64,000 nt of DNA from an uncultured delta proteobacterium (GTDB lineage: Bacteria; Desulfobacterota; Zymogenia; Zymogenales; Zymogenaceae): the NCBI GenBank assembly GCA_963792965.1, contig CAWBYW010000007.1, forward strand, positions 128,001 through 192,000, in the 5' to 3' direction. A program made the position numbers and the translations under genes. A model generated the notes under the pieces. It ran no database searches and had not been told where the DNA came from. It saw only the letters and a list, made by a program, of their open reading frames with translations. Shown piece after piece: positions 4,964-23,430 of the stretch; the stretch's first letter is position 1, and the number at the start of each line of letters is the position of its first letter.

Positions 4964-5645
4964 ATGCACATTCCGGATGGTTTTCTTTCGCTGTCGGTGA
5001 GCGCGGCAACGTATGCTGTATCGGCCGTAATCGGCGCGATAACGCTCTTTCAGGCAAAGAAGAAATTCGCCGAGCGCTTCGTTCCCCTTGCGGGAATCTC
5101 GGCGGCCTTCATCTTCGCTGCGCAGATGATCAATTTTCCTATTGGCGGCGGCACGAGCGGGCATTTCCTTGGGGCGATGCTGGCGTGTATCCTGTTGGGT
5201 CCATCGGCGGGATTTTGGGTCATGATCCTCGTGCTGACCGTGCAGTGTCTCGTCTTCGCTGACGGCGGCATTACATCCCTCGGGGCTAATGCGCTAAACA
5301 TGGGGATCGTCGGCAGGTATCATATCCTACGGCATCTTTATGCTGGTTGTTGCGATTCTCCCGAGGGGGAAGGGTTCCTTCTTGTCGGCGGCCTTCGGTG
5401 TCTCATGGTTTGCAGTCGTGCTTGCGGCCTTCGTGTGCAGCATGGAGCTCGGCATATCGGGCACAATTCCCTTCAGGGTAGTAGTTCCCGTTATGATCGG
5501 CTCTCATATTCTCATCGGACTGGGCGATTCGATCGTGACAACGGCGGTCCTTTCCTACATGCTCAATGCCAGGCCCGACCTCGTCTATGCATGGGTCGAG
5601 GGCAGGGCCTCGTACATGGAAAAAGAGGTGACGGCAAATGGATGA
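4964..5645 (+). CDS. ECF nickel/cobalt transporter S component NikM/CbiM, one frameshift near 5312
   Basis: MHIPDGFL N-terminus, TSGHFLG and FADGG motifs; C-terminal half in ORF 5340..5645. Confidence 0.88.
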
Positions 5646-5949
5646 GAAGAAGAAGAATATCCGATTCGTCGTCATCGCCCTCTTCGTATGCCTTGCCGTT
5701 GCGTTTTTCCTGTCGCCCTTTGCCTCACCGAACCCCGACGGCCTCGAAAAGGCTGCGGAAAAGCTGGGTTTCGCGCACCTCGGCGAGGCGTCGGTTTGGG
5801 CGCACTCGCTTATGCCCGACTACAGGGTCCTGTTTCTCGGAGGAACGAGGGGCTCGGGGATGGTTGCGGGCCTCATCGGGACGCTGCTGGTATTTGCCCT
5901 CGGATGGGGGGTGGGGGCAATCCTCAAGAGGAAGAAGAAGGATACCTGA
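5638..5949 (+). CDS. PDGLE-domain membrane protein (NikN-like)
   Basis: SPFASPNPDGLE and MPDY motifs, two TM helices. Confidence 0.9.
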   Translation: MDEKKKNIRFVVIALFVCLAVAFFLSPFASPNPDGLEKAAEKLGFAHLGEASVWAHSLMPDYRVLFLGGTRGSGMVAGLIGTLLVFALGWGVGAILKRKKKDT

Positions 5950-5992
5950 GTACCATCGTGGCGCCGTGACGCGTGAAATCGGCACGAAATGA

Positions 5993-7569: not shown

Positions 7570-7819
7570 AATGCGATATCGATAGAGGCTCGGGTCAAGC
7601 TCCATTATGTGCTGAAAACGCATGCACCCAGGAGAAACTCCAAGAAACCGTTTGTTCTGACTCTCGCCGACGGTGCCATTATCGGGGAAGTAATTACCAC
7701 CCTCGGGTTGCTGAATGATCGGACTAAGTACTATTCGTCGGATCCGAACGGCCGGGAAAGACCGACTTCTTATCGACGGGGATACCCGTAGAATCCTCCC
7801 GCCGGTTATCGATGGATGA
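7570..7819 (+). pseudogene. Degenerate MoaD/ThiS sulfur-carrier gene
   Basis: IEARVKLHYVLK...LADGAIIGEVITTLGL in one frame; LIDGDTRRILPPVIDG* in another frame (7769-7819); terminal GG replaced by DG. Confidence 0.5.
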
Positions 7820-7911
7820 ATAAGTTGTCACTGCAGCGTTTTCTTAATGTATCTCGGGCACACGAAGCATACGTGGCGGCAGATGAACTGACGAACGTGA
7901 CGACAGAACAT

Positions 7912-7937
7912 AACCTCCCAAAATGGGAGGTTTTTTT
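7912..7937 (+). terminator. Intrinsic terminator
   Basis: AACCTCCCA-AAA-TGGGAGGTTTTTTT. Confidence 0.7.
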
Positions 7938-7999
7938 GTATCCGCGGAGCAGCCACTGTGAGCGGGATAAGAGAATCCGGGGCAAGAACTAAAATTTCC

Positions 8000-8038
8000 T
8001 TGACATATATAACGTTGTTCCGTACGATAACATCGTTC
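8000..8038 (+). promoter_or_regulatory. Sigma70 promoter of the TetR gene with candidate operator repeats
   Basis: TTGACA(8000)-N17-TACGAT(8023); ATAACGTTGTTC (8009) and ATAACATCGTTC (8027). Confidence 0.55.
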
Positions 8039-8054
8039 ACAAGCCGGCCTTTTG

Positions 8055-8720
8055 ATGAACCCAGTAGAACGTCCTGACATGGAAAACGTCATTGCCCTGC
8101 GGATTGAAGCGGAAAAACAAGAACGGATTGAGCGAATCCTGAACGCAGCACTGAAGCTCTTTCTGGAAAAAGGGTATCTCGGCGCTACTATGCGCGACAT
8201 CGCTCTTGAAGCCGAGCTTTCCACCGGGGCCATCTACGTCTATTTCTCCGGGAAAGACGAGATTTACGAAAAAGTCTGTGAAGAGGCGTTCCTGGTCGTT
8301 ATCGGTCTTATCAAGGAGGCGGCCTCGATAGGGGGCGCACCAAAAGATCGCATACGGGCAATCGCTCACCAATATGTTACCTTCTATACCGACTATGCCG
8401 AGTATTTCGAAATGCTCACGTTCCATGATCTCGGTTTTACTAAACGCGGTCAATCGGAACATCTCAGAGAACGGCTCAAGGATTTGACCGCGCAGGCCGT
8501 GAGTATCATCGAAGCCGTCGTCGTGGACGGAGTAGCCACCGGGGATTTTTCATCAGACCTCGACAGCACCCAGGCAAGTTTCAACCTTTGGGCGGGATTG
8601 GAGGGTGTTCTCATCCTCGATATGATGGGGTATCTCAAGAGCTTTAATCTGGATCTGGAAAAGGTCGTACTGTCTCAGCTGGAAATATTGCTCACGGGCG
8701 TCATTGCAAGAGCCCGGTAA
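8055..8720 (+). CDS. TetR/AcrR family transcriptional regulator
   Basis: ILNAALKLFLEKGY.ATMRDIA.EAELSTGAIYVYFSGKDEI helix-turn-helix. Confidence 0.93.
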   Translation: MNPVERPDMENVIALRIEAEKQERIERILNAALKLFLEKGYLGATMRDIALEAELSTGAIYVYFSGKDEIYEKVCEEAFLVVIGLIKEAASIGGAPKDRIRAIAHQYVTFYTDYAEYFEMLTFHDLGFTKRGQSEHLRERLKDLTAQAVSIIEAVVVDGVATGDFSSDLDSTQASFNLWAGLEGVLILDMMGYLKSFNLDLEKVVLSQLEILLTGVIARAR

Positions 8721-8828
8721 TAAAACAACGCTTCGTCGCGAAGAGCAAACGAAGCGAAAGACGATGATAACAGATCATTATCGGATCGTTTGAAACAGGC
8801 CTTCATATAAAATAAGTAGTATGAGGAG

Positions 8829-10115
8829 ATGACTATGGGCGCCCAACTTACCAAGGATCAGCTGAATGAGATAAAGAAACAAGCGCTGGATGACTATTCC
8901 CGGTATGTCAATCCCCAGAAAGCACGGGTATTAAAGAACGCCGGGCTTGACATTATCGAGGGTAAGCGGGAGGGAGCGGCGGTATGGGATATCACGGGTA
9001 AGAAGTACATCGACTGTATCACGTCGGCCGGATCGTTCAATGTCGGGAGAAGGAACCCCGAGATCATTGCCGCCTTGAAGCAGGCGCTTGACGAATACGA
9101 TCTGGGCGTCTTTCTCCTCTGCAGCAAGCCCAAGGCGGACCTGGCCAAAAGGCTCGCGGAGATCACCCCGGGCGACCTCCAGTACGTCATGTACGGGTCG
9201 GGAGGCGGAGAAGCCAACGACTTCGCCATCAAGCTCGCCCGCGGGTACACGATGAAGAATGAAGTCATCTCAACGATCAAAGCATATCACGGCCATACCG
9301 GATTTTCACTTGCCGCCATCGGTCGGGAGGAATACAGAAAGCCATTCGGCGCGATGGTCCCGGGGTACAAACACGTCCCCTATAACAACCTCTCCGCAAT
9401 GGAAGAGGCGATCACCGAGGATACCGCCTGCGTGATCATTGAGCCGGTTCAGGGGGAGGGGGGCATCTACCCCGCCTCGGACGACTACATGAAGGGGCTC
9501 AGAAAGATTTGCGACGACCACGAAGTACTCCTCATCTTCGACGAGATCCAGACGGGATTCGGACGCACGGGCAAGATGTTCTGTTGCGAATATTCGGGCG
9601 TCGTCCCGGACATCATGACCGTGGCCAAATCGCTGGGCGGCTCCATCTACCCGATATCGGCCACGATATACCGCGGGGAGCTCGGGGACTTCGTGATGAC
9701 GCACGCCTTCACCCACCTGTCCACGTTCGGGGGCTCGGACCTCGGGTGTATCGTGGGGCTTGCCGTTATCGACTATATCACGAAGCACAAGCTGCCCGAG
9801 CACGCGGCAAAGATGGGCGAGCGCTTCCAGAAAGGGTTCGACGAGCTGTTAAAGAAGTATCCCGAGCTGCTCACGGAGGTCCGACGCAAGGGCCTCATGA
9901 TGGGCCTCCAGTATACCAACGACAGCATCGGGCCGCGGATGAGCTATCAGCTGGCCCAGAACGGCGTTATGGCGATCTATACGGGGAACGAGCCGTCGGT
10001 CATGCGCATCATGCCCTCGCTCGTCATAGAGCCCGACGAGGTCGATTTCGTAATCGAGGCCATCGATACGTCGATGGCCGAGATCATGAAACAGGGCGGC
10101 ATAGAGAAATATTAA
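8829..10115 (+). CDS. Class-III PLP aminotransferase (omega-transaminase-like), copy 1
   Basis: [37 protein letters not shown]. Confidence 0.93.
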
Positions 10116-10132
10116 GTCACAGGAGGTTTTTT

Positions 10133-10492
10133 ATGGCGACAGCGGACGAAATCTGGGAGGCCCTTGCCGACTTTACCGAGCAGTGTAACAGTAACAAACG
10201 GCTCAGGAAGATGCAAAGGGATTGGACGAAGGTTATGCACTTTAAGGCCTCGGATACGGGAGACTCCTTTACTATGAAGGTCGTCGAAGGCGAGATCGTC
10301 AAGAATGATCGGGGATCGATCGGGACTCCCGACATCATCGTCGAGACGGAGAGTGAGACGATGTGTGATATGTTCTGGGGAGATATCAATCCCACGCAGA
10401 AGTATCTCCGGGGCGAGATCAAGGTCAAGGGAACCCAGGAGGACGTCATGCGCATCGATGTCATCTCCGCGGTCATCTGGCCGGAGGTGTAG
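10133..10492 (+). CDS. SCP2 sterol/lipid-binding domain protein
   Basis: AGGAGG RBS; PDIIVETESETMCDMFWGDINPTQKYLRGEIKVKG fits the SCP2 pattern. Confidence 0.82.
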   Translation: MATADEIWEALADFTEQCNSNKRLRKMQRDWTKVMHFKASDTGDSFTMKVVEGEIVKNDRGSIGTPDIIVETESETMCDMFWGDINPTQKYLRGEIKVKGTQEDVMRIDVISAVIWPEV

Positions 10493-10493
10493 C

Positions 10494-11780
10494 ATGTCCA
10501 TTATCGATGAGATTCTCGCCCAGACCGACGTGGAAAAGATCAGGAAGGAAGCAGAAGAGAATTACAGAGAGTATGTAAACCCCTTCGCGCTTCGGATGTT
10601 TAAGAACGCGAGCCTCGACATCATCGAGGGAAAGCGAGAAGGGGCCTGTGTGTGGGACATCTCGGGCCAAAAGTACATCGATTGCGTTACGGGCGCGGGA
10701 ATCTTCAACGTCGGCAGACACAACGAGGAGATCGTCGAGGGGTTAAAGAAAGCCCTCAATACATATGATATGGGGGGCTGGATTTCCATCGTGCGCGAGC
10801 GAGGGCTTCTCGCAAAGAAGCTTGCCGAGATCACGCCCGGGGACCTCAAGTTTTCGCTCTTTTGCTGCGGCGGTGGGGAGGCTATCGAGGTGGCAATCAA
10901 GCTCGCGCGCGGCCATACCGACAAGACCGAAATCATCTGCATGGAAAACGGGTACCATGGGGTGACAGGGTTCGCATTGCCTGCAACGGGACGGGATGTC
11001 TACAAAGAGCCCTTCGCCCCCCTGACCCCCGGCTATAAGCACGTCCGATACAACGACATCGGCGCGGTGGAAGAGGCGATCACGGAGGAGACGGCCGCGG
11101 TGATGCTGGAGCCGATCCAGGGAGAGGGAGGCATTATCCCCGCACGCGATGAATACCTCCGTGATCTGAGAAAGCTCTGCACGGACAACGAGATCCTCCT
11201 TATTTTCGATGAAGTCCAGACGGGATTCGGCCGCACCGGGAAGATGTTCTGCGCCGAGCACAGCGGGGTGAATCCCGACATCATGGTGCTGGCGAAATCT
11301 CTCTCCGGGGGCCTCTATCCACTATCGTGCGCGATCTTTACCGAGGAGATCTCCGAATTCCTCATGACGCATCCCTTTATCATCATCAATTCATTCGGCG
11401 GCACGTCACTGGCGTGTTTGGTCGCCCTGGCGACGATCGAGTATATCCAGAAAAACGACCTCCCGGCCCACGCCCAGGCAATGGGACAGCGGTTCATGGC
11501 CGCCCTTGCGTCCCTTAAGGAAAAGTATCCTGAGCTCGTGCTTGACGTGCGGGGCAAGGGACTCATGCTCGGCATGGAGTTTCCCGAGGACAGTATCGGT
11601 CCGCGGATGGCATATCAGTTGAAGCAAAACGGCGTGATTTCGATCTATACGTTCAACAACCCGCGTATCATACGCATCATGCCGACCCTCGTTATCAACG
11701 AGAAGGAGGTCGATTTTGTTATCGAAGCCTTCGATAGATCGCTTGCCGAGATCAGGAGCCAGGAACAGAAGGTCAAATAG
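10494..11780 (+). CDS. Class-III PLP aminotransferase, copy 2
   Basis: [38 protein letters not shown]; clear paralog of 8829..10115. Confidence 0.93.
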   Translation: MSIIDEILAQTDVEKIRKEAEENYREYVNPFALRMFKNASLDIIEGKREGACVWDISGQKYIDCVTGAGIFNVGRHNEEIVEGLKKALNTYDMGGWISIVRERGLLAKKLAEITPGDLKFSLFCCGGGEAIEVAIKLARGHTDKTEIICMENGYHGVTGFALPATGRDVYKEPFAPLTPGYKHVRYNDIGAVEEAITEETAAVMLEPIQGEGGIIPARDEYLRDLRKLCTDNEILLIFDEVQTGFGRTGKMFCAEHSGVNPDIMVLAKSLSGGLYPLSCAIFTEEISEFLMTHPFIIINSFGGTSLACLVALATIEYIQKNDLPAHAQAMGQRFMAALASLKEKYPELVLDVRGKGLMLGMEFPEDSIGPRMAYQLKQNGVISIYTFNNPRIIRIMPTLVINEKEVDFVIEAFDRSLAEIRSQEQKVK

Positions 11781-11873
11781 TCACCGTATGCTCAAGAATG
11801 CCGACATCGGATTTGGTTACGTACATGTAGTTTTCTACCACTATGAAGGGAATACCCCTGCGAGGTGCGAATC

Positions 11874-13508
11874 ATGACAGAGCTCAGACGAGGGATCGGG
11901 CTGCGAACGATTGTCTCCACGGGAGCGGGCATGGCACTTGCCTCGGTTACCTATATATCATTTATCCAGCTGGCGAGTTACCTTACGGGGAATTCCGCCT
12001 GGATCGCCATTCTTACCGCAGGCCTCATGGCGGTCTTGGCGGGGTCATGCTTCTGTGAGCTGAATTCAATGTACCCGACCGCGGCGGGAATCAAGCTCTT
12101 CATCGAGCGTGCGTTCAACGAGCGTACCGCGATCGTCATCTCGGGGGTCTATGTCCTCGGGCAGCTTGCCATTGTCGGCGCCGAGATTTACATACTCTCT
12201 CAGGCGATATCCCAGGGGGTATCGTTTGTCCCGCCGATCGTCTGGGCGGCGGCCTGTGTCCTGGTTCTCCTCTACCTCAATTTCAGAGGAATCACTGTTG
12301 CCGGAATAGCCCAGGATATCCTCGCGTACACGATGTTTGTCGGCCTTATTGCGGTCTCCTTCTACGGGTTCTACACCATCGGTTTTCACATCACAAACCC
12401 GTTTACCATCGGCTCGTTCGACGGCTTTATCCAGGCCGTTGCCATCGGGATATCGACCTATATCGCCTTCGAGTGGGTCATCACCGTCTCGGAAGAAGTG
12501 ACCGACGTGAAGCTCGTGCCGAGAGGGATGATGATGGCCCTCGGTCTTTTGGCGATCACCTATGCCCTCTTTTCCACGGCCATGACCTCGGTCCTCGGCT
12601 GGGGGCTCCTCGCCCCGGTCATCTCTCCCGAGGGGATTCCGACCCCTCACGTCCTTTACGGCAAGTTCCTGCTGGGGAATTTCGGGCTCTACTTCATGAT
12701 CATCATGGGGCTGTTGGCGTCGACGACTTCGCTTAACGCCGGAATCATGACCGCCTCGCGGTTCATTTACGCCATGGCGCGGGATTGGTCGCTGCCGAAG
12801 TTCCTGGCAAGGCTCCATCCACGCTATGCAACCCCGTGGGTCGCCATGCTCGTTATCCTGGCGTATTGCGTGGCCGTGACGGTATATGGATTTCTAACCA
12901 ACTTCGTCCTCTCGTTGATCCTTATCATCGCCGCGTCGGAATGTCTGATCTATGTGGTGATGGCGCTATGCGTCATTCGGCTCCGTTACAAGGAGCCGGA
13001 CAAGGAGCGGAGTTTCAAGATAAAGGGGGGCCTCATCATTCCGATCATCGTCATCGTGATCTACAGCGTGGTGGCCGGATTTATCCTCTTCGGCCCGGTG
13101 AAACCCGAAGACCAGATGGATCAGCGTATCTGTCTCTTCTTCATCGTCGGGCTTTTTATCCTTAACACGGTGTACGTATACACGGCCTGGCCGTGGCTTC
13201 GGGCGAAATATAAGAGGATCGCCGATGAGCGGGTACCGAGACGCCGACGGGCGGCCGCCGCGGATACCGGCGACGCGCAGGGATCAGGAAGCGTCGGCTC
13301 TGAAAGGGGTATGAGCCCCGTACGAGTTGTTCGGGTAGTGTGGCCGCGCCGGCCACCCAAGAGGACCGAGGGCGCAGTCAGAAGAGAGATTGAAGGATAC
13401 TGCGGCGGCCGATTGCGTTCAAGACCGATCGGCCGGCCGGAAGATAAAAACCATCAGCAAAAACGTTTCATGGAGGTATCGTTATGGCACTTTCCGATAC
13501 GGAGCTGA
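11874..13508 (+). CDS. APC-family amino acid/amine permease, copy 1 (C-terminal tail may be artefactually extended)
   Basis: About 12 TM segments; ELNSMYPTAAG, FEW...SEEV, SRFIYAMARD, HPRYATPW. Confidence 0.88.
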   Translation: MTELRRGIGLRTIVSTGAGMALASVTYISFIQLASYLTGNSAWIAILTAGLMAVLAGSCFCELNSMYPTAAGIKLFIERAFNERTAIVISGVYVLGQLAIVGAEIYILSQAISQGVSFVPPIVWAAACVLVLLYLNFRGITVAGIAQDILAYTMFVGLIAVSFYGFYTIGFHITNPFTIGSFDGFIQAVAIGISTYIAFEWVITVSEEVTDVKLVPRGMMMALGLLAITYALFSTAMTSVLGWGLLAPVISPEGIPTPHVLYGKFLLGNFGLYFMIIMGLLASTTSLNAGIMTASRFIYAMARDWSLPKFLARLHPRYATPWVAMLVILAYCVAVTVYGFLTNFVLSLILIIAASECLIYVVMALCVIRLRYKEPDKERSFKIKGGLIIPIIVIVIYSVVAGFILFGPVKPEDQMDQRICLFFIVGLFILNTVYVYTAWPWLRAKYKRIADERVPRRRRAAAADTGDAQGSGSVGSERGMSPVRVVRVVWPRRPPKRTEGAVRREIEGYCGGRLRSRPIGRPEDKNHQQKRFMEVSLWHFPIRS

Positions 13509-14326
13509 AAAGCCTTACGGAGAAAGCCCACCAGATCAGAAGGGACATCATCCAGACCCTCGTCTGGTCCGGCGGCGGACACGCCGGGGGCTCTCTTTCC
13601 CAGGCCGATATTTTGGTGGCCCTCTACTACAAATATCTCAACATCGACCCGAAACGCCCCGACTGGCCCGACCGCGACAGGGTTATCCTCTCCAAAGGAC
13701 ACGGAGGGGTCGGGTTTGCGCCGATCCTTGCCGACAAGGGGTATTTCGACAAAGAGCTTCTCAAGGGGTTCAATCATACCGGATCCCCCTTCGGGATGCA
13801 CCTGGACAGCCTGAAGGTCAAGGGAGTGGATGCCTCGACAGGGTCGCTGGGCCACGGCCTGTCCATCTCGGTCGGGCTTGCCCTCGGCGCAAAGCTCAAG
13901 AAGAAAAAATGGCTCACCTGGTGCATCATGGGCGACGGGGAGCAGGCCGAAGGGAGCGTCTGGGAGGCGGCGATGGCGGCATGCCACTACAAGATCGGCA
14001 ACCTCAAGGCGATCATCGATAACAATAAGTTCTGCATCGATGGGGCCTGCGAAGACATCATGTGCATCGAGCCGCTCAAAAAGAAATGGGAGTCGTTCGG
14101 CTGGAAGGCCTTCGAGGTCGACGGGCACGACTTCAAGGACCTGTGCGGCGGGATCGACAAGGCCATCGCGCACAAGGATGGGCCGTGCGTCATCATCGCC
14201 CACACGATTAAGGGGAAGGGCGTCGACTTCATGGAGGACCAGGCGGCGTGGCACTACGGCGGGCTGGACGCGGATAAGACCAAGAAGGCCCTCGAATCGA
14301 TCGATCGGATGTATGCTAAAAAATAA
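13484..14326 (+). CDS. Transketolase, N-terminal ThDP-binding subunit
   Basis: GHAGGSLS, DRVILSKGH, STGSLGHG, GDGE..EGSVWEA, DGHD, TIKGKG. Confidence 0.93.
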   Translation: MALSDTELKSLTEKAHQIRRDIIQTLVWSGGGHAGGSLSQADILVALYYKYLNIDPKRPDWPDRDRVILSKGHGGVGFAPILADKGYFDKELLKGFNHTGSPFGMHLDSLKVKGVDASTGSLGHGLSISVGLALGAKLKKKKWLTWCIMGDGEQAEGSVWEAAMAACHYKIGNLKAIIDNNKFCIDGACEDIMCIEPLKKKWESFGWKAFEVDGHDFKDLCGGIDKAIAHKDGPCVIIAHTIKGKGVDFMEDQAAWHYGGLDADKTKKALESIDRMYAKK

Positions 14327-14343
14327 AGAAAAGGAGGTACGCC

Positions 14344-15364
14344 ATGGCTGAGCAGGCTGGAGGCTTGACATATACGATTTACGACGCCGACAAGATGACG
14401 GCGGCCGAGATTTATGGCGAGGTATTGACCCAACTGGGAGGTCAACGCCCCGAGATCGTGGGGCTGACGGCCGACCTGGCCAAATCCACCAAGATCGGTG
14501 CGTTCGGGCAGAAGTACCCGGACAGGTTCTTCAACGTGGGCATCGCCGAGCAGAACATGTTCGGTATCGGCGCGGGTCTCGCGCTGGCGGGCTTCACGCC
14601 GTTCATCTCGACGTTTGCGATCTTTGTATGTACACGGGCCTCGGAACAGGTGAGAACCGACATCTGCTACCAGAAGCTCAATTGCAAGATCATCGCAACC
14701 CACTCGGGCATATCCTTCGGGCAGGCCGGGACGACTCACCACTGCACGGAGGATCTGGCGATCATGCGGTCATTTGCGAACATGACCGTCATCGCGCCGT
14801 CCGACGGTCTGGAGACCGCCAAAGCGGTGCAGGCGTGCGTTGACTGGAAGGGTCCCGTCTATATCAGGATCGGACGTGGCTTCGAGCCCCGTGTCAACAA
14901 AGACGATAAGTTCGAGTACAAAATCGGAAAAGCCCGGGAGATGTGTTCCGGCACGGACGTGACGGTTATCGCATGCGGCTCTCCGGTCGTCGCGGCGGTA
15001 GATGCGGCCGACTTCCTCAAGAAGAACGATAAGCTCTCGGTGCGGGTCCTCAACATGCACACCGTGAAGCCGATCGACCGCGACGCCATCGAGAAGGCGG
15101 TCAAGGAGACCAGAAGGATCATCACCTTCGAGGACCACAGCATTATCGGAGGACTCGGCAGCGCGGTCGCCGAAGTCATCGCGGACCTCGGCAAAGGGAT
15201 GCGCCTTCAAGCGCGTGGGACTCCCCGATGAGTTCTCGCCCGTCGGGTATCCGGAGGACCTCTACCATCACTATAAGCTTGACTCCGAGGGGGTCATCGA
15301 GACGGTGAGAGAGGTGCTCGGAAAGGAGTACGAGGAAGACGAAGACTGGCAGGATGAATTTTAA
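14344..15364 (+). CDS. Transketolase, C-terminal subunit, one frameshift near 15197
   Basis: ADLAKST, VGIAEQN, GPVYIRIGR, EDHSIIGGLGSAVAE; the shifted frame continues KRVGLPDEF...EDEDWQDEF* at 15364. Confidence 0.9.
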
Positions 15365-15380
15365 ACGATAAGGAGGCGAT

Positions 15381-16157
15381 ATGCCCGACAAGGATTATGT
15401 CCTGGCAAGGATCATGCTGAGGGCCGCCGTGCCGCTTGCGAAGACCTTGATCGAAGACGACCCGAAGATGCGCGAAAAGTACCGGGGATTCAATAAGGTG
15501 GTCCAGTTCGAGGTGAAGGGGAGCGAAGATCTCGTCACCCAGCTCAAATTCGAGGACGGTATCCCCAAGCCGATCTTCGAACGGGACCCAAACCCCGACC
15601 TTGCCTTCATCTTTAAGAGCGCCAAGCAGCTCAACGCCTTTTTCGGAGGCAAACCCGCCATTCCGAAGATCAAGGGGCTCACGAAGGTCGGCGTCCTCCT
15701 CAAGGTCGTCCCGCTCCTGCTGGGCCTGACGCTGCTGCTCCCCACGAAGATCCCCAAGGATCCTGCGAAACGGAGGCTCAAGGTAAAGCTCCTCTTCTAT
15801 ATGCTCAGCTCGGCGCTGTCGCAGATGAACAAGGCCGGGGACGAGGAGTTCGTCGAGTTCACCAAGAAAATGCCCGACCGTGTCATCCAGTGGTCCTGCC
15901 TTCCCGATGGGCCCTTTGCCTACCTGCGCATCAAATACGGAAAGACAAAAGCCGGCAGAGGCGTCTATACGAGGAGGAGGCCGTTTATCGACATGCAGTT
16001 CAACGGCGTGGATGCCGCCATACAGGTTCTCACCAACCAGGTAGACCTCGTCCAGGCTATTATGGACGGGAAGCTCAACCAGGAAGGATCGCCGGAATAC
16101 GGCAAGGACCTCGGCGCCTTCATGCTCAAGATCGACGCGTGGATGAAGGAAGTGTAG
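15381..16157 (+). CDS. Hypothetical protein, probably two SCP2-like domains
   Basis: AGGAGG RBS; VVQFEV...PDLAFIF and IQWS...DMQFNGVDAAIQVL...AIMDGKLNQEG resemble SCP2 folds. Confidence 0.6.
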   Translation: MPDKDYVLARIMLRAAVPLAKTLIEDDPKMREKYRGFNKVVQFEVKGSEDLVTQLKFEDGIPKPIFERDPNPDLAFIFKSAKQLNAFFGGKPAIPKIKGLTKVGVLLKVVPLLLGLTLLLPTKIPKDPAKRRLKVKLLFYMLSSALSQMNKAGDEEFVEFTKKMPDRVIQWSCLPDGPFAYLRIKYGKTKAGRGVYTRRRPFIDMQFNGVDAAIQVLTNQVDLVQAIMDGKLNQEGSPEYGKDLGAFMLKIDAWMKEV

Positions 16158-16253
16158 CCTCTCGCTCGCAGGTAAGGTCAGTGGCGAGCGGAGCAAGGCG
16201 GTTTCGTCTATTCTTCTGATGGGCCTATCATCGGAAAGGAGAAAGGAACGGGT

Positions 16254-17611
16254 ATGAGCCAACTCAAACGGGTGGTGAAGCTCAGGACGGTGGTAGCCAC
16301 GAGCGCCGGCATGGCAATGGCAACCTCCTGTTATACGGCCGGGGTCAAGGTTGCCATGTTGGTCGCGGGCAACTCCGCGTGGATATCCATCGCCGTCGCG
16401 GGTTTCATGTGCATCCTGTCGGCCATGTGCTTTTCAGAGCTCAACGGGATGTACCCGTCCGCCGCGGGCATTCGGCTCTTCATCGAGCGAGCCTTCGGCG
16501 AGAAGGCGGCCATCTCTATCGGGGCCTTCTACCTCGGCTGCGCAATCGCGATGGTGGGGCCGGAAACGCACATCCTCAGCAGTGTCATCGGCACGATCGC
16601 TCCGGGCGTTCATCCTTTCGTGTGGGTAGTGGTCTTTTTGGGCTTGATCGCCCTCATCAATCTGAGGGGGGTCAAGGTCGCCGGGTGGGCCGAGGATATC
16701 ATGACCTATGTCATGCTCACCTTCATGGTATTCGTGGGCATCTACGCGATCGGTAAGTTCGGGGTTTCATCCAAAGAGCTCTTCAACACCGGCGGGGTGA
16801 CCAACGTCTTTCAGGCGGCGGCGGTCGGCGTATTCCTCTTCGTCGGATTCGAGTGGGTGACACCGCTGGCGGAGGAAGTGCTTGACAGCAAGATGATCGC
16901 CAAAGGGATGATGTGGGCCATCGGGCTGTTATGCCTCACCTACGTCTTGTTCATTACGGGGATGACCGCCGTGGTCCCCAAGGAGACACTTGCGGTGTCG
17001 GCAATCCCGCACATCATCGTGGGGAACGCCCTGTTCGGGAAGGCCGGCATCTATATGTTCGTCGTGATGAGCTGCCTGGCCTCGCTGACCTCGTACAACG
17101 CGGGATTTTTGAATTTTTCGCGCTTCATGTACGCCATGGGACGGGATAACGTGCTGCCGCGGATATTCTCACGCATCAGCGACCGGTACGCCACGCCGTG
17201 GTTTGCGGTCCTCTTTGCTTTTCAGTGTCGCTTCTGATATCGCTCTACATCCACCTCACGGGTAAATACATGACACTGATTATGGTGGCGGCGGCTATTG
17301 AGGTTATTATCTATACGGTGATGGCGCTGTCGGTGATAAAGCTCCGTTTCTCGCTCAAAGACGCCCGAAGACCCTATCGGGTCCCAGGCGGGTTGGTTAT
17401 CCCGATCGTTGCGATCGTCTTTTTCCTGATACTGCTGGTGGGCATCTATTCGGAAGATATTACGGTCCTGTTCATCATGGCCGGGGTTTTTATCGTTTGC
17501 CTCCTCTATACCCTTGTGGTGCCCCCGCGCCTGAGGGCCGCCTATGAAAAAAGGATGTCCGAGCGGGTTCCGCGGAGAAGGAGACCGGGAGGGCCGGAGT
17601 CGGGAAAATAG
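16254..17611 (+). CDS. APC-family permease, copy 2, one frameshift near 17220
   Basis: ELNGMYPSAAG, VGFEW..LAEEV, SRFMYAMGRD; C-terminus in ORF 17198..17611. Confidence 0.86.
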
Positions 17612-17644
17612 CGTAGTATTGAATCGCGATATAAGGAGTGAAAG

Positions 17645-18743
17645 ATGAAAATCGGAGTTCCTAAGGAGATAAAGGCCGAGGAGAATCGGGTGGCGATCAC
17701 CCCCGCGGGCGTATCCGCGCTGACCAGCCACGGCCATACGGTCTTCGTGGAAAAAGGGGCCGGCCTCGGCAGCGGGATAACGGACCAGGAATATATTGCC
17801 GCGGGGGCTCAGAGCCTTCCGACGAAGGAGGACGTTTGGAAACAGGCCGAGATGATCATCAAGGTAAAGGAGCCGCTCGGCCCGGAATTTGACCTGATCC
17901 GGGACCATATCCTCTTCACCTATTTCCACCTGGCGGCGGATATCGAGCTGACCAAAAAACTTCTGGCGACCAATGTTAAGGCCGTCGCCTACGAAACGAT
18001 CCAGCTTGCCGACGGGTCGCTGCCGCTGCTGGCCCCGATGAGTGAGGTCGCGGGACGGCTCTCGATCCAAATGGGCGCGCGCTGTCTCGAGTCGATCGGG
18101 GGAGGGAAGGGGATCCTCCTGTCGGGTGTCTCGGGAGTGCCGCCGGCAAAGGTGGTGGTCCTCGGTGCCGGGATCGCCGGCTCCAACGCCTGTTACGTGG
18201 CCGTGGGCATGGGGGCGAGGGTAAGCATCCTGGATATCAATCCCGCAAAGCTGCGCTACATCCACGACGTCATGGGAGGCCACGTCGTGACCGTCATGTC
18301 GAACCTCGCCAATATCGAAGAAGAGGTATTGTCGGCCGACCTCGTCGTCGGGACGATCCTCATTCCCGGCGCAAAGGCCACAAAGCTGGTCACTCGGGAG
18401 ATGATAAAGAAGATGAAGAGAGGCTCGGCCATCGTGGACATCTCGGTGGACCAGGGCGGGTGCGTGGAGACCACTCACCCGACGACGCATAAAGATCCGA
18501 CGTATATCGTCGACGGCGTTGTCCACTACGCGGTGGCAAACATGCCGGGGGCGGTTCCGCGCACCTCGACCTTTGCGCTGACAAACTCGACGCTCTCCTA
18601 TGCCCTCGATATCGCCAATAAGGGACTGGACCGCGCAATTGCGCGAGAGCCCGTCCTTGAAGAAAGGGGTCAATATCCTGAATAAGAAACTGACGTACAA
18701 GGCGGTCGCCGAGGCCTTCAACATGAGCTGGGTGGAGATTTAG
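17645..18743 (+). CDS. ald: Alanine dehydrogenase, frameshift near 18659
   Basis: [45 protein letters not shown]; true end KKGVNI...WVEI* in the shifted frame. Confidence 0.93.
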
Positions 18744-18813
18744 ATTTAGCTTGATAAAGGGGGCGAAGTTTAGTATAATGTATTTTCTATGACGCTCTCT
18801 TAGAAGGGATGGT

Positions 18814-19758
18814 ATGATGCTCAACGCGGCGGCCAAGATAAAAGGGATCCTTGACGAATACGTAATCGGACACAACGATATCAAGGAGGGAATCCTCCTT
18901 GCTTTGATAGCGCGGGAACACGTCTATATCGAGGGCGCCCCGGGCACGGCAAAGACGATGCTTGCCGAGCTCACCGCCAAGGCCGCCAATCTCAACTTCT
19001 ATTTCTATCAATTCCACCGCGATACGCGGTTGACGGAGCTGATCGGCGACTACATCATCTGCCGCGAGCCGCAGTCGGGAAACGGGGACGCGGAGCTGAT
19101 CAGCCAGCGACTCGTCCCCGGTGGTATCCTTACGGCGCAGCTGGCCGTTCTTGACGACATAACCCGTGCGCCGGGAGAAGCCCTCAATATCCTCCTTCGG
19201 CTTCTCAACGAGCGGGAATATAAAGGGAGCCGCCTCCCGCTGCTCACGGCGATAGCCACCAGTAATCCCACCCAGGATGACTACTACAACGAGCCGCTGG
19301 ATCTGGCTAACCTTGACCGGTTCACGATTCAGCTCCGGTCGTCGGGGCTCATCAACCGGGGCAACTGGGACGAAGCCGTCTCGGTAATGAATTACTACAC
19401 CGACCACACGTTCGACAAGGAGTCGGTCACGGGTTTCGAGAATGCCCTCTTTGCCGATCCGGACCGCTACCTGTTGGATATCACCGTTCCGGCAACGGTC
19501 CGGCAGCGACTCATTGGATTCCTCGAGCATCTGGTTGTCAATTTCCATCTCAACGAGACCAATTCGCTCCTCACCGACCGGACGTTTCTCGTCAAGGCTA
19601 TCCGCATTCTCAAGGCCAAGGCGGTGCTTGAGGGAAGAAAAGAGGTCGTCCCCCAGGACCTTTCCGTCCTCAGCTACCTCACGACGTTCCGGGTCCCTCC
19701 GGAAGTAGGGATGCGCCTGGACGAAATCCTCATGGATCTGGTCGAAAAAAAAAACTAA
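18814..19758 (+). CDS. MoxR/RavA-type AAA+ ATPase
   Basis: Walker A GAPGTAKT, Walker B AVLDDI, ALNILL..LNER, ATSN, LDRF. Confidence 0.88.
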   Translation: MMLNAAAKIKGILDEYVIGHNDIKEGILLALIAREHVYIEGAPGTAKTMLAELTAKAANLNFYFYQFHRDTRLTELIGDYIICREPQSGNGDAELISQRLVPGGILTAQLAVLDDITRAPGEALNILLRLLNEREYKGSRLPLLTAIATSNPTQDDYYNEPLDLANLDRFTIQLRSSGLINRGNWDEAVSVMNYYTDHTFDKESVTGFENALFADPDRYLLDITVPATVRQRLIGFLEHLVVNFHLNETNSLLTDRTFLVKAIRILKAKAVLEGRKEVVPQDLSVLSYLTTFRVPPEVGMRLDEILMDLVEKKN

Positions 19759-20699
19759 ATACGCCCGAGTTCCAAGAGCGTGAGGAACAACCCCAGCCGC
19801 AGGAAGTAGAGGAAGGCGCGGCCGAGCCGTCCGAGCTTTCCGACAAAGACTTCGAGCAATTCCCCGATAAGTCCTTCGTCGTAAAAGACCTGCTTCCCAC
19901 TCGGGAAAAGACCGACGATAACGTCGTCGACAGGGGCGAGGATGAAGTCAATAAGGAAACGCTCAGCGACGTCCGGCCGATACTCAAGGTCATCGAAGGC
20001 AATATCGTTCAAAAGACCGAAGACCTCATGAAGGATTCCGGCGGCTCGCCGCGAAGCTGGTCGCGCCTTGAGGATTTCTCCCACTTTGACGACGTGGACC
20101 CGGTCGACTCGACGGTGTGGCTTTCTCACCTCAATCCGAAAATGCCGATGGCGCTCCTCCGCAAGCGAAAGCTCAAGGGCGGAGCACTGGCTATCGTGCG
20201 CGATATCAGCTCTTCCATGACCGGGAGCCGCGCTCAGTGGTCTTCCATGCTGATCCTTGGGCTTGTCCGTATCGCGCGAAAGAGACGGATGCGGCTTGGC
20301 TATCTCGAGTTCAATCACCAATCGACAAAATTCCTGAGGAACAGGACTTTCTTCAACCGTTCGTATACCCGTATCGGCGATATTGCATCGCGATGTCGAT
20401 GCAGCGGGTTCACCAACTACCAACTCCCGCTTCTGGACGCCATCAAGGAGTTCAAAGACGTGTCCGACAGGATAAAGCACGTCGTGTTTATTACTGACGG
20501 AAGACCCACGGAAGGGGACCGGGAGATCAGCCGCGAGATAAAGATCGCCCAGAAGGATGGAATAGCGGTCCATTCTATCTATATCGGGAAGAAGGAATCC
20601 CCGGAGATCCTCAGGACGCTGTCGAAGAAGACGGGAGGGGCCCATTTTCAGGTAGGGCCGGATGAGAACGGGAGTCTGAAGCTGAAAACATTGACATAA
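19743..20699 (+). CDS. Acidic linker plus vWA domain, open in the -1 frame from the A10 run
   Basis: Stop-free frame from 19743 (LNTPEFQEREEQPQPQEVEE...); MIDAS DISSSM, GFTNY, VFITDGRP. Confidence 0.82.
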   Translation, partial: RKKKLNTPEFQEREEQPQPQEVEEGAAEPSELSDKDFEQFPDKSFVVKDLLPTREKTDDNVVDRGEDEVNKETLSDVRPILKVIEGNIVQKTEDLMKDSGGSPRSWSRLEDFSHFDDVDPVDSTVWLSHLNPKMPMALLRKRKLKGGALAIVRDISSSMTGSRAQWSSMLILGLVRIARKRRMRLGYLEFNHQSTKFLRNRTFFNRSYTRIGDIASRCRCSGFTNYQLPLLDAIKEFKDVSDRIKHVVFITDGRPTEGDREISREIKIAQKDGIAVHSIYIGKKESPEILRTLSKKTGGAHFQVGPDENGSLKLKTLT

Positions 20700-20740
20700 T
20701 GCTGATATTATTATGCATGCCTAATAATTGAGGTTTGCCG

Positions 20741-21883
20741 ATGACACACGACGAGATTCTCAAGGAAATGAAGGCGGTGGCCCAAGACCCCGTCGCTGCG
20801 GCTCGGAAATTCAAGCAGAAATATAACAGGCCGGTCTTCGGTTACTTCTGCACCTACACCCCCGAGGAGATCATTCACGCCGCGGGGGGCATTCCGTTCA
20901 GGATCATCGGACAGAAGAAGGGCGTCGTCTGTTCCGATGCCCACCTCCAGAGCTATTCCTGCTCGCTGGTGAGAACAGGGCTCGATATGGCGCTGACAAA
21001 ACAGCTTGATTTTCTGGAGGGGGCCGTTTTCCCGCATACGTGCGATTCCATACAGCGTCTCTCCGACATCTGGCGAATAAACACGGACTACTCGTTTCAC
21101 GCCGATATCGTGCTGCCCGTTAAACTTCAGACCGAAAGTGCGAGAACCTACCTGATCGAAGAGCTCACGTCCTTTCTCAAGAAACTGGAGGCGTATACAA
21201 AGCATGAGATCAGCGTGCCCTCGCTCAACGAAGCCATCGGGCTCTATAACACCATGAGGACCAACCTCACGCGACTTTACGCGGCCAAGCAAGAGAATCC
21301 CGAAATAATTCATTCCAGCGCCGTCAACGACTGCGTCCAGGCCGCCATGTTCATGCCCGTGGAAGAACACAACTCTCTCATGGGCGAGCTGCTCTCGCTC
21401 ATCGGGAAGAAGAACACCAGCGCACGGCCGACCAGGATATTTCTTGTCGGAAACCTGTGCGTCTTCGACGAGATATACGACTATATCGAGGCGGCAGGGG
21501 GGACCGTCGTCGGCGACGACATGTGCACGGGCTCGCGCTATTTTGCCCTTAACGCCGACGGTAAATCGTCAAAGCCGATCCAGGCCCTTGCGGATCGGAT
21601 CATCAACCGGCCGATATGCGCCGCAAAACACAATCCCCTGCTTGACCGCGGGGTCTACCTGAAAGGGATAGTGCAGGATAGCGGGGCGCAGGGGGTCATC
21701 TTTCTGATGCTTAAATTCTGTGATCCGCACTCCTACGACTATCCGTACCTGAAGGAGTCGATGGACGAATTGAAGGTGCCCCATATGCTGCTCGAGACGG
21801 AGATGGACAATCCCTCACTCGGGCAGATCAAGACCCGTATTGAAGCGTTCATGGAGATGATAGGAGACAGCCGTGGCAGATGA
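20741..21883 (+). CDS. 2-hydroxyacyl-CoA dehydratase / benzoyl-CoA reductase family subunit
   Basis: CTYTPEEIIHAAG, PHTCDS, DDMCTGSR, KFCDPH, TRIEAF. Confidence 0.88.
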   Translation: MTHDEILKEMKAVAQDPVAAARKFKQKYNRPVFGYFCTYTPEEIIHAAGGIPFRIIGQKKGVVCSDAHLQSYSCSLVRTGLDMALTKQLDFLEGAVFPHTCDSIQRLSDIWRINTDYSFHADIVLPVKLQTESARTYLIEELTSFLKKLEAYTKHEISVPSLNEAIGLYNTMRTNLTRLYAAKQENPEIIHSSAVNDCVQAAMFMPVEEHNSLMGELLSLIGKKNTSARPTRIFLVGNLCVFDEIYDYIEAAGGTVVGDDMCTGSRYFALNADGKSSKPIQALADRIINRPICAAKHNPLLDRGVYLKGIVQDSGAQGVIFLMLKFCDPHSYDYPYLKESMDELKVPHMLLETEMDNPSLGQIKTRIEAFMEMIGDSRGR

Positions 21884-23114: not shown

Positions 23115-23199
23115 GAACCGCCCGGATGTCGCGTGCCCTGATATGTGGGGTGAAAGGCAAGGAGACTACCCGAAAATGGCGCGTGCCCCGTTTCGTGCG

Positions 23200-23430
23200 A
23201 TGGTCGAAGTGAGGCTCTTCGGGTCCTTCAGGCGATACGCGAAGGATAAGAAGGGCCTGAGGATGGAGGCCGCCGATCTGTGCGATGTCTTGAAGGATCT
23301 CCCGGTCGAGCGCGGAGAGGTGGGCCTGGTGCTCATCAACAGGCGTCCCGTGGAGTCGGTGTGGAAGGGCCCACATCAATTGAATGACGGGGATCTGATA
23401 GAGATATACCCCATCGCCACCGGAGGGTAA
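23200..23430 (+). CDS. MoaD/ThiS family sulfur carrier
   Basis: VEVRLFG...LNDGDLIEIYPIATGG with C-terminal GG. Confidence 0.85.
   Translation: MVEVRLFGSFRRYAKDKKGLRMEAADLCDVLKDLPVERGEVGLVLINRRPVESVWKGPHQLNDGDLIEIYPIATGG

Follow-up and report, generated by a model that had tools for sequence, protein, structure and literature searches.

An operon of aminotransferases, a split transketolase and SCP2 proteins in Candidatus Zymogenaceae, with a possible role in the breakdown of hydrophobic amino-alcohols

Introduction

On what kind of compound would an operon act that joins aminotransferases, a split transketolase, SCP2 proteins and an alanine dehydrogenase (Ald)? The question is raised by a stretch of 64,000 nucleotides, here called the window (contig C7, positions 128001-192000, of genome G000, from an uncultured, anaerobic sediment bacterium of the Candidatus Zymogenaceae), in which ten such genes follow one another on the + strand from 8052 to about 18743. 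Coordinates are window positions except where another locus is named. A preliminary description of this DNA proposed that the genes import a sphingoid base-like 2-amino-1,3-diol, transaminate it and cleave the resulting ketol with the transketolase. In this study, we examine that proposal through family assignments, gene neighbourhoods, active-site residues, a tree and structure predictions.

We favour, at a probability of roughly 0.45, a more general reading, in which the operon would serve the TetR-controlled breakdown of a hydrophobic amino-alcohol by transamination, followed by thiamine diphosphate (ThDP)-dependent cleavage of a lipid ketol. The substrate is likely to be a 2-amino-3-ol or 2-amino-1,3-diol with a long chain, of a sphingoid, a 1-deoxysphingoid or a fumonisin-backbone type; to name a sphingoid base as that substrate is a guess. 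The reading draws on the conservation of the transketolase together with an SCP2 protein across phyla, on the FumI-like aminotransferase that recurs beside this pair, and on the separate clade and altered active site of the transketolase.

Results

The ten-gene operon

All ten genes of the preliminary description are present and co-directional on the + strand, with intergenic gaps of -25 to 150 nt, and the block from 8052 to 18743 is a real operon. The description of it as one tightly spaced block is thereby borne out, and its gene content was given correctly; its gene order was not, as the small SCP2 gene lies between the two aminotransferase genes and not after both. The first gene encodes a TetR-family regulator (8052..8720; Pfam TetR_N, E = 1.4e-15), the top NCBIfam match of which, Bacillus-type FadR at 59.5 bits, is far under the cut-off of 200. 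It is followed by AT1, a class-III aminotransferase resembling putrescine aminotransferase (8829..10115; Aminotran_3, E = 1.5e-95), by a small single-domain SCP2 protein of 119 residues (10133..10492; Pfam SCP2, 27.9 bits, cut-off 21.3), by the second class-III aminotransferase, AT2 (10494..11780; Aminotran_3, E = 1.5e-94), and by APC1, an APC-superfamily permease with a frameshifted 3' end (11865..13508; AA_permease_2, E = 5.8e-36). The transketolase is split into an N-terminal, ThDP-binding subunit, TK-N (13484..14326; Transketolase_N, E = 4.5e-42), and a C-terminal subunit, TK-C (14344..15364; Transket_pyr, E = 5.8e-42), whose open reading frame (ORF) stops at 15231 and whose tail continues in another frame to about 15364. 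Next comes a 258-residue protein that we call double-SCP2 (15381..16157), with a Pfam SCP2 match on its C-terminal half (25.0 bits against 21.3); both it and the small SCP2 protein are thus members of the SCP2 family. The block closes with the second APC permease, APC2 (16254..17611, as two overlapping ORFs, 16254-17237 and 17198-17611), and with Ald (17645..18743), which passes the TIGR00518 cut-off (472 bits against 391.85, profile positions 1-339 of 370 being covered) and whose ORF stops at 18685 after a frameshift. The two permeases match ethanolamine and amino-acid permeases weakly.

Conservation of the transketolase and double-SCP2 genes

The split transketolase and double-SCP2, together termed module 2 with double-SCP2 as its marker, are a strongly conserved unit. 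Relatives of double-SCP2 number 343 proteins in the protein collection and 343 stretches in the species-genome collection, and the best 80 of these stretches, fetched with their flanks, are the loci examined here. TK-C adjoins the double-SCP2 gene in 68 of the 72 loci that have at least 1.1 kb upstream, the four exceptions all being from Planctomycetes, and TK-N is present in 59 of the 63 loci with enough flank. Module 2 occurs in Thermodesulfobacteriota, Planctomycetota, Hydrogenedentota, Nitrospirota, Myxococcota, Syntrophomonadaceae and other Bacillota, Spirochaetes and Verrucomicrobia. In the phylum sample, each of the 9 remaining Zymogenaceae genomes yielded a double-SCP2, and the 31 genomes from other families yielded none.

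The partners of module 2 are more variable. Among 45 well-flanked loci, a FumI-like aminotransferase subfamily, AT', is present in 27, a paralogous double-SCP2 (about 26% identical) also in 27, and a putrescine-aminotransferase-like enzyme in 5; 13 have no aminotransferase of any kind. Ald accompanies module 2 in 13 of 36 loci. The same-strand neighbours beyond the five-gene core are heterogeneous, the commonest family among 83 such proteins (NAD-dependent epimerase/3-beta-HSD) occurring 4 times. Genes for PatA-like aminotransferases, small SCP2 and APC permeases are found in 5 to 7 of the 80 loci, all of them from Zymogenaceae (L011-L016, L071); in L011-L014 and L071 the genes are interleaved into one co-directional operon of APC1, transketolase with double-SCP2, APC2 and Ald. 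Conservation of the cluster as a unit consequently has two answers: the transketolase/double-SCP2 pair is conserved across phyla, but the ten-gene layout is confined, among the 80 loci, to Candidatus Zymogenaceae.

Two further sets of loci were noted. In three from Desulfobacterales that have no aminotransferase (L047:11004-12239, L077:10788-12023 and L052:6892-8091), an acyl-CoA dehydrogenase gene lies just downstream or a zinc alcohol dehydrogenase gene just upstream, which hints that the ketol may also come from dehydrogenation of a diol lipid. A contig of a Candidatus Bathyarchaeia archaeon metagenome-assembled genome (MAG), L061, carries a bacterial-type core of aminotransferase, transketolase and double-SCP2 at 47% identity, and this may reflect gene transfer or a binning error.

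The FumI-like aminotransferase and a sister locus

AT' is of the FumI type, as judged from its copy in locus L076 (L076:6810-8051), with 332 bits (E = 3.8e-98) for FumI (6hbs) and 160 bits (E = 6.5e-46) for glutamate-1-semialdehyde aminomutase, the family that comes second. In the accessible sections of the fumonisin work, FumI takes the 2-amino group from hydrolysed fumonisin B1 (HFB1), a sphinganine-like 2-amino-3-ol lipid, and transfers it to pyruvate, its preferred acceptor; the enzyme does not accept 2-oxoglutarate, has a Km of 1.1 uM for the lipid substrate and forms a 2-keto-3-hydroxy compound (PMC3136697). The same sections describe no step past 2-keto-HFB1 and contain neither of the words 'thiamine' and 'acetolactate' (PMC3136697). 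The recurrence of Ald beside module 2 is explained by the use of pyruvate by FumI.

The AT' of G000 lies outside the window, on contig C5, where it directly follows the paralogous double-SCP2 and is 52% identical to the AT' of L076. This sister locus (L092:5153-12008) encodes, in order, an 880-residue SCP2-E1 fusion, an enoyl-CoA hydratase, the paralogous double-SCP2, AT' and a V4R-domain protein. The 880-residue protein consists of an N-terminal SCP2 domain followed by E1 alpha (E1_dh, E = 2e-74) and E1 beta (Transket_pyr, Transketolase_C), and it stands 2 to 3 kb from the paralogous double-SCP2, on the same contig, in G000, G001, G002, G005, G007 and G009. The FumI-like enzyme is therefore tied twice independently, in the module-2 loci and in the C5 locus, to a ThDP enzyme that cleaves C-C bonds and is associated with SCP2 domains. 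The fusion family is large (2094 proteins at E <=1e-20 among 8000 candidates scored), and its members are annotated only as '2-oxoisovalerate dehydrogenase E1 component' or similar.

The linked transketolase

Residues of the transketolase are numbered as in E. coli TktA, in which their identities were checked, and their roles are those that we take them to have. The residues assigned to ThDP, metal and catalysis are kept in the window enzyme (His26, His66, His100, Asp155, Asn185, His261 in the motif WHYGG, Glu411 and His473) and, depending on the residue, in 45 to 49 of the 49 homologues that are linked. The full sugar-phosphate and acceptor site (Arg358, Ser385, His461, Arg520, Asp469) is not conserved as a whole, Asp469 being lost throughout and Arg358 in most of the enzymes. 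Asp469, which presumably binds the 2-hydroxyl of the acceptor, is replaced by Ala in all 49 linked enzymes (GQAGTTHH, against GEDGPTHQ in E. coli) and likewise in the window enzyme. Arg358 is replaced by Ala in 35 of the 49 and also in the window enzyme, the rest of the 49 having Arg (6), Thr (3), Lys (1), a gap (3) or another residue (1). At position 469 the 150 nearest cluster representatives have mostly Asp (77), then Leu (18), Ala (15) and Gly (11), and at position 358 Arg is found in 113 of them. The consulted part of a study of split transketolases calls Asp469 a well-established hotspot of specificity and stereoselectivity, finds the highest conversion of pentanal with the only enzyme of its set that lacks this residue (Leu), and describes split transketolases as (S)-selective (PMC13663882).

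In a FastTree tree of TK-C, 40 full-length linked TK-Cs form one clade with support 0.95, into which only two of 130 representatives fall. Besides these sequences, the input comprised E. coli transketolase and the paralogue on contig C13 of G000, nine ORFs of odd length and 20 representatives of <280 or >420 residues having been dropped; the C13 paralogue lies outside the clade. A full-length transketolase over the TIGR00232 cut-off is encoded elsewhere in 5 of 5 other module genomes, and in these the linked enzyme is, by sequence comparison, a specialised extra copy and not the housekeeping one. The NF004559 cut-off of 488 bits, made for the full-length protein, is out of reach for each half alone because the enzyme is split (262 and 249 bits for TK-N and TK-C).

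Other transketolase genes of the family were noted in passing. The C13 copy (L093:1978-11240) is a second split transketolase, 52% identical, with Gly at the position of Asp469 and a C-terminal subunit that is apparently 5'-truncated; it follows genes for a PFL-like glycyl-radical enzyme, two zinc alcohol dehydrogenases and a short-chain dehydrogenase, and may belong to another transketolase-dependent pathway. In three Zymogenaceae genomes of two genera (G003:C17, G004:C20, G006:C12), the gene for a full-length canonical transketolase is encoded on the other strand from the paralogous double-SCP2 and no more than about 2 to 3 kb away from it.

The SCP2 proteins

An AlphaFold model of double-SCP2, built from an alignment of 15 sequences, has a mean confidence (pLDDT) of 91.6. 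In a fold search, its C-terminal half (residues 129-258) matched human and yeast SCP2 with Z scores of 10.8 to 11.7, the best match being 8af3 (Z 11.7, root-mean-square deviation (rmsd) 2.5, 112 residues aligned). When the N-terminal half was modelled by itself (pLDDT 87.4) and compared with 48,161 chains without Foldseek, it had only SCP2 proteins as its ten best matches (Z 9.1 to 6.9), led by 3bn8 (Z 9.1, rmsd 2.8, 94 residues aligned); SpnK followed at 6.9, a mycobacterial protein at 6.0 and all remaining rows at or below 4.5. Since both halves match SCP2 in these searches, the name double-SCP2 is correct, and the models indicate that each half has an SCP2-like fold. Sequence comparison alone says less: the double-SCP2 profile had as its best match among solved structures an unrelated protein at E = 0.039, and hhalign detected the internal duplication weakly (probability 14%, E = 0.002, 68 columns in register). 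A search of a protein atlas with the family returned only its own clusters, unnamed or named SCP2.

Taken together, the window and its sister locus on C5 encode three SCP2-type proteins with five SCP2 domains, and the SCP2 proteins of the operon would, on the strength of their folds, be lipid carriers. A complex of TK-N, TK-C and double-SCP2 was also predicted, with the trio of locus L012, each protein supplied as an alignment. It scored 0.58, the highest of 3 controls being at 0.00. Of 80 solved complexes, 58 attain the mark in question, as do 2 of 110 mismatched pairs; scores of 0.60 or less account for only 7 of the 80 and for both of the mismatches that passed. The runs share at least 45% of their contacts, and partner pLDDT is at least 86; the prediction weakly suggests a physical association of the three proteins.

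The aminotransferases of the window and module 1

AT1 and AT2 are 58% identical and differ in kind from AT'. Their best solved relative is the putrescine aminotransferase of E. coli (316 bits), followed by PigE (4ppm, 260 bits). They are nevertheless under the cut-offs of the PatA equivalog families and cannot be assigned to them, with 369.5 (AT1) and 399.5 bits (AT2) against 612 for NF008570, and 304 and 330 bits against 658.65 for TIGR03372.

A putrescine-aminotransferase-like enzyme, the 119-residue SCP2 protein and an APC permease constitute what we term module 1, and this module also occurs outside the family. In a search of 251 Desulfobacterota genomes, homologues of the small SCP2 (61-73% identity) were found in seven genomes that are not from Zymogenaceae (G085, G123, G217, G232, G248, G270 and G294), and in 7 of 7 loci the gene is preceded by one for a PatA-like aminotransferase (61-71% identity). 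An APC permease gene follows the SCP2 gene in G085, G123, G217, G270 and G294; in G232 a second aminotransferase gene and an APC gene are both found on the opposite strand. In G248 the locus is a 2.1-kb contig of aminotransferase, SCP2 and aminotransferase genes, whose flank is too short to judge whether the module stands alone. TetR genes neighbour the standalone module in three loci, Ald in one and an AMP-binding (acyl-CoA ligase-type) gene in one, and in 3 of 6 such loci the neighbours include an amide-cleaving enzyme (Amidohydro_3, Amidohydro_1 or penicillin amidase). Because module 1 stands alone elsewhere, the comparison of these loci indicates that the window operon is a fusion of two modules, in which the transketolase and double-SCP2 genes have been inserted between the two permeases of module 1.

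Ceramidase genes

The preliminary description had proposed that co-occurrence with ceramidases be examined, and the outcome differed between genome and gene cluster. Pfam Ceramidase_alk, for the neutral ceramidase family, has matches in 5 of 5 module genomes tested, four of them over the cut-off, as against 0 of 14 controls. Among 251 Desulfobacterota genomes, 17 have a match, namely 6 of the 12 with double-SCP2 and 11 of the 239 without. When Zymogenaceae, whose matches are weak and partial, are dropped, a ceramidase is found in 4 of 10 genomes with either module and in 9 of 233 others (one-sided Fisher p = 0.0009); the genomes are mutually related, and three of the four positive ones are large (6.3 to 8.0 Mb). 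The co-occurrence of ceramidase and module in genomes is suggestive only.

As a member of the cluster itself, ceramidase was rejected: a Ceramidase_alk match of 38.3 bits lies upstream of the core in L023 only, and none in the other 79 loci. This locus (L023:732-15101, from a Syntrophomonadaceae MAG) encodes, besides the ceramidase-like protein, one that resembles saccharopine dehydrogenase and three large ones (678 to 725 residues) that have no Pfam family. Two of these large proteins are 40% identical, and no extra gene of L023 was found in the other 79 loci.

Frameshifts

The intact orthologous operon of locus L012 served as the reference for reading frames. The 477-residue APC1 orthologue of that operon aligns only up to 13238, near which the window gene is frameshifted. 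Single-base indels were demonstrated in two genes, TK-C having one extra base near 15191-15225, and APC2, whose L012 orthologue is an intact ORF of 460 residues, lacking one base after TTTT near 17220. In Ald the frameshift lies near 18621-18664 and displaces the last 25 or so residues; the tail aligns in another frame to 18740, which puts the actual end of the gene close to 18743. On contig C5, the SCP2-E1 fusion likewise appears frameshifted at its 3' end, and related operons of other genomes are broken in other genes than the window copy. Assembly error seems the likely cause, with real decay as a possible one. Among sequencing runs, none contained more than 0.07 of the sampled sequence words; the three DNA runs listed had shares of 0.05 to 0.07, and no RNA run was listed.

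Borders and flanking genes

On its left the operon is bordered by a terminator-like, bidirectional hairpin (7912..7932, inverted repeat I1), a 9-bp stem followed by a T run. A weak promoter-like site with 10 of 12 matches (TTGACA-17-TACGAT; 8000..8028, + strand) lies 5' of the TetR gene, and a further promoter-like site lies 3' of Ald (18751-18779). Over the region, promoter-like sites (8, against 6.7 +/- 2.6 in shuffled sequence) and terminator-like sites (16, against 10.6 +/- 3.7) are both near the shuffled level, and no convincing palindrome that could serve as a TetR operator was found within 7750-8900.

The AOR and ALDH genes that had been named as possible aldehyde oxidisers are both real, AOR at 23431-25335 and ALDH at 51719-53329 on the minus strand. 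Between the operon and the end of AOR (18814-25335) are genes for a MoxR AAA ATPase, a VWA protein and two HGD-D (2-hydroxyacyl-CoA dehydratase/benzoyl-CoA reductase-type) subunits. The order MoxR-VWA-HGD-D-AOR is kept in five Zymogenaceae loci (in four for the second HGD-D subunit), which is synteny among close relatives only. Upstream, a 342-residue ORF (4964-5992) matches Pfam CbiM over its first 119 residues only (profile positions 1-117 of 205) and may be another frameshift or fusion in the assembly.

Discussion

Under the reading that we favour, the amine would be imported and held on an SCP2 carrier by module 1, which in the window includes AT1, the small SCP2, AT2, the APC permeases and Ald. 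The aminotransferase would pass the amino group to pyruvate, and Ald would reconvert the alanine to pyruvate, giving ammonia and NADH. The split transketolase would then cut the alpha-hydroxyketone between C2 and C3 on ThDP, yielding a fatty aldehyde, and would hand the two-carbon unit to a sugar phosphate. Double-SCP2 may present the lipid ketol or remove the aldehyde, which AOR, ALDH or another enzyme would oxidise for beta-oxidation. We infer from gene content and enzyme relationships the class of substrate, the catabolic direction, pyruvate as the amino acceptor and the order of these steps. Of the mechanism first put forward for this locus, transamination and then transketolase, the generalised form has gained from the conserved pair, the FumI-like partner and the clade of the transketolase, but the aminotransferases of the window itself are not FumI-like.

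The scheme resembles several characterised systems, and is identical to none. With fumonisin catabolism in Sphingopyxis sp. MTA144 (FumD esterase, FumI), it shares the FumI-like AT' of the module-2 loci, including the C5 copy; it differs in AT1 and AT2 and in that the organisms here are anaerobes. Moreover, the FumI substrate is a 1-deoxy (methyl) compound, whereas transketolase requires a hydroxymethyl ketone. AcoAB-type acetoin dehydrogenase E1 cleaves methyl acyloins, the kind of product that FumI makes, and the C5 locus likewise links FumI-like AT' to an E1 alpha-beta thiamine enzyme; unlike AcoAB, the C5 enzyme has E1 alpha and beta fused together behind an N-terminal SCP2 domain, has no adjoining E2/E3 gene and lies outside the window. 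The linked transketolase has in common with E. coli TktA the fold, the cofactor site and His26, His66, His100, Asp155, Asn185, His261, Glu411, His461, His473 and Arg520, and, as far as the consulted part of the source goes, shares its division into N and C subunits with characterised split transketolases (PMC13663882). From the pentose-phosphate transketolase it is set apart by its own clade, by Ala358 (35/49) and Ala469 (49/49), and by the double-SCP2 gene that always comes after it. Split transketolases have been recruited to the catabolism of unusual ketols in the sulfo-TK pathway for sulfoquinovose and in that of the apulose-4-phosphate transketolase; the substrates there are water-soluble sugars, and we know of no aminotransferase, SCP2 or Ald in either. 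AT1 and AT2 have PatA (YgjG) of E. coli and PigE of Serratia as their nearest solved relatives, yet they stay under the equivalog cut-off and are paired with SCP2, an APC permease and Ald. PatA uses 2-oxoglutarate; for AT1 and AT2 this pairing suggests pyruvate as the acceptor and a hydrophobic substrate. No description of the gene set or of the pathway was found in a search of full-text literature, supplements not covered.

A number of observations weigh against the favoured reading, beginning with the aminotransferases of the window. FumI is absent from the 60 listed solved relatives of AT1 and AT2, and the putrescine-aminotransferase/PigE subfamily usually acts on terminal amines and not on an amine at a secondary carbon; the known substrates of APC permeases, too, are polar amines and amino acids. 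No transketolase adjoins module 1 in 6 of 6 flanked loci outside Zymogenaceae, and of the seven genomes concerned five had no double-SCP2 match at E <=1e-30, G085 being the only one for which a match was recorded, so that, with module 1 alone in six genomes, its product need not be a transketolase substrate. On the side of the transketolase, three of the four phosphate residues (Ser385, His461, Arg520) are kept in 49 of 49 linked enzymes, with which an ordinary sugar-phosphate role would be compatible, and residues other than Asp at position 469 are frequent among the nearest representatives (73 of 150), so that Ala469 is not unique. G000, at 88.85% completeness, has no full-length transketolase, its only copies being that of the window, the split one on C13 and DXS; within the family 4 of 10 genomes have one. 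None of ceramidase, kinase or lyase is a conserved neighbour of the core among the 83 same-strand neighbours. Sphingosine kinase and a pyridoxal phosphate-dependent lyase, in particular, are neither among the ten genes nor among the 25 commonest Pfam families of these neighbours, no genome-wide search having been made. Four genes of the operon (APC1, TK-C, APC2 and Ald) are frameshifted relative to L012. Finally, the stereochemical reservation made at the outset stands: a D-erythro sphingoid base would give a 3R ketol, and it is 3S ketols that transketolases form and use. The amino terminus of fumonisin is 2S,3S (threo), a configuration that gives a 3S ketol, and FumI-type enzymes and transketolase would for that reason be mutually compatible; this compatibility does not obviously extend to D-erythro sphingoid bases.

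Alternatively, the general scheme may hold with a different chemistry, in which carriers, regulator and Ald are all that the two modules share. Module 1 would then turn a hydrophobic terminal amine (a long-chain alkylamine, an amine freed from an N-acyl amide or an amino-polyol lipid) directly into a fatty aldehyde, while the transketolase and double-SCP2 acted on another lipid ketol or on that aldehyde, and no sphingoid-like substrate would be involved. The subfamily of AT1 and AT2 fits such a role, PigE itself working on a lipophilic aldehyde, as do the module standing alone in six genomes with amidohydrolase or penicillin-amidase genes beside it in three, and the 13 of 45 module-2 loci that have no aminotransferase, some of which have a zinc alcohol dehydrogenase or an acyl-CoA dehydrogenase gene. 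We nonetheless regard this as unlikely, since the interleaving of the modules in one co-directional operon (L011-L014, L071) argues for one pathway and since the transketolase pair of other phyla has a FumI-type enzyme linked to it. A small polar amino-alcohol, with ethanolamine going to glycolaldehyde, was considered as well and fell in our estimate once the link to FumI, the SCP2-E1 fusion and a total of five SCP2 domains had come to light.

The observations could also be of a more ordinary kind: an operon for a polar amine (a diamine, a polyamine, ethanolamine or similar) that couples pyruvate transamination to Ald beside a pentose-phosphate transketolase, with the SCP2 proteins in an accessory, non-lipid role. 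The top family matches of AT1 and AT2, the weak permease matches, the lack of a full-length transketolase in G000 and the retention of the catalytic and most phosphate-site residues are all in keeping with it. Yet AT1 and AT2 are under the putrescine-aminotransferase cut-off, the ten-gene block holds no aminoaldehyde dehydrogenase, both SCP2 folds are confidently predicted and the small SCP2 is fixed in module 1; the transketolase travels with double-SCP2 across phyla in genomes that also have a canonical enzyme (5/5), and with its Ala358 and Ala469 it stands in a clade of its own. Such an operon therefore seems to us distinctly improbable. Since transamination and the transketolase reaction can each run in reverse, and since engineered cascades of the two enzymes produce 2-amino-1,3-diols, the conserved core might instead be biosynthetic: the transketolase would join a two-carbon ketol unit onto a fatty aldehyde, and the aminotransferase, with alanine from Ald, would aminate C2 to give a sphingoid-like 2-amino-1,3-diol without serine palmitoyltransferase. 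Most core loci outside Zymogenaceae lack a transporter, and Ala469 would suit non-hydroxylated aliphatic aldehyde acceptors, in line with the portion consulted of the split-transketolase study (PMC13663882). Set against this are the position of the window core between two uptake permeases, under TetR and beside Ald, a layout typical of catabolism; the finding that no N-acyltransferase or lipid-assembly gene recurs among the 83 same-strand core neighbours; and the catabolic function of FumI, the closest characterised relative of the core aminotransferase. Synthesis is, in our judgement, the least probable of these accounts.

Returning to breakdown by transamination and ThDP-dependent cleavage, a wider and more tentative proposition is that anaerobes of many phyla have a natural transaminase/transketolase cascade, made up of a pyruvate-linked aminotransferase and a dedicated clade of split transketolase with SCP2 carriers, that interconverts long-chain 2-amino-1,3-diols (or 2-amino-3-ols) with fatty aldehydes and a two-carbon unit; we hold this to be possible, though doubtful. 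If this were true, the cascade would break down sphingoid bases with no need of ATP, kinase or lyase and, in reverse, would make them with no need of serine palmitoyltransferase. Sphingoid bases and toxic lipid amines, such as 1-deoxysphingolipids and fumonisin-type backbones, would then undergo an undescribed mineralisation in anoxic sediments, soils and guts. It would also give a lipid-handling transketolase its first physiological role, outside sugar metabolism, and would be the natural counterpart of a transketolase-transaminase amino-diol cascade that has so far been purely engineered, with enzymes for long aliphatic substrates. The large double-SCP2 family would gain a function, as perhaps would the very common SCP2-E1 fusion family. 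Even with another substrate, the tight linkage of these genes offers a testable enzyme system that is spread across many phyla.

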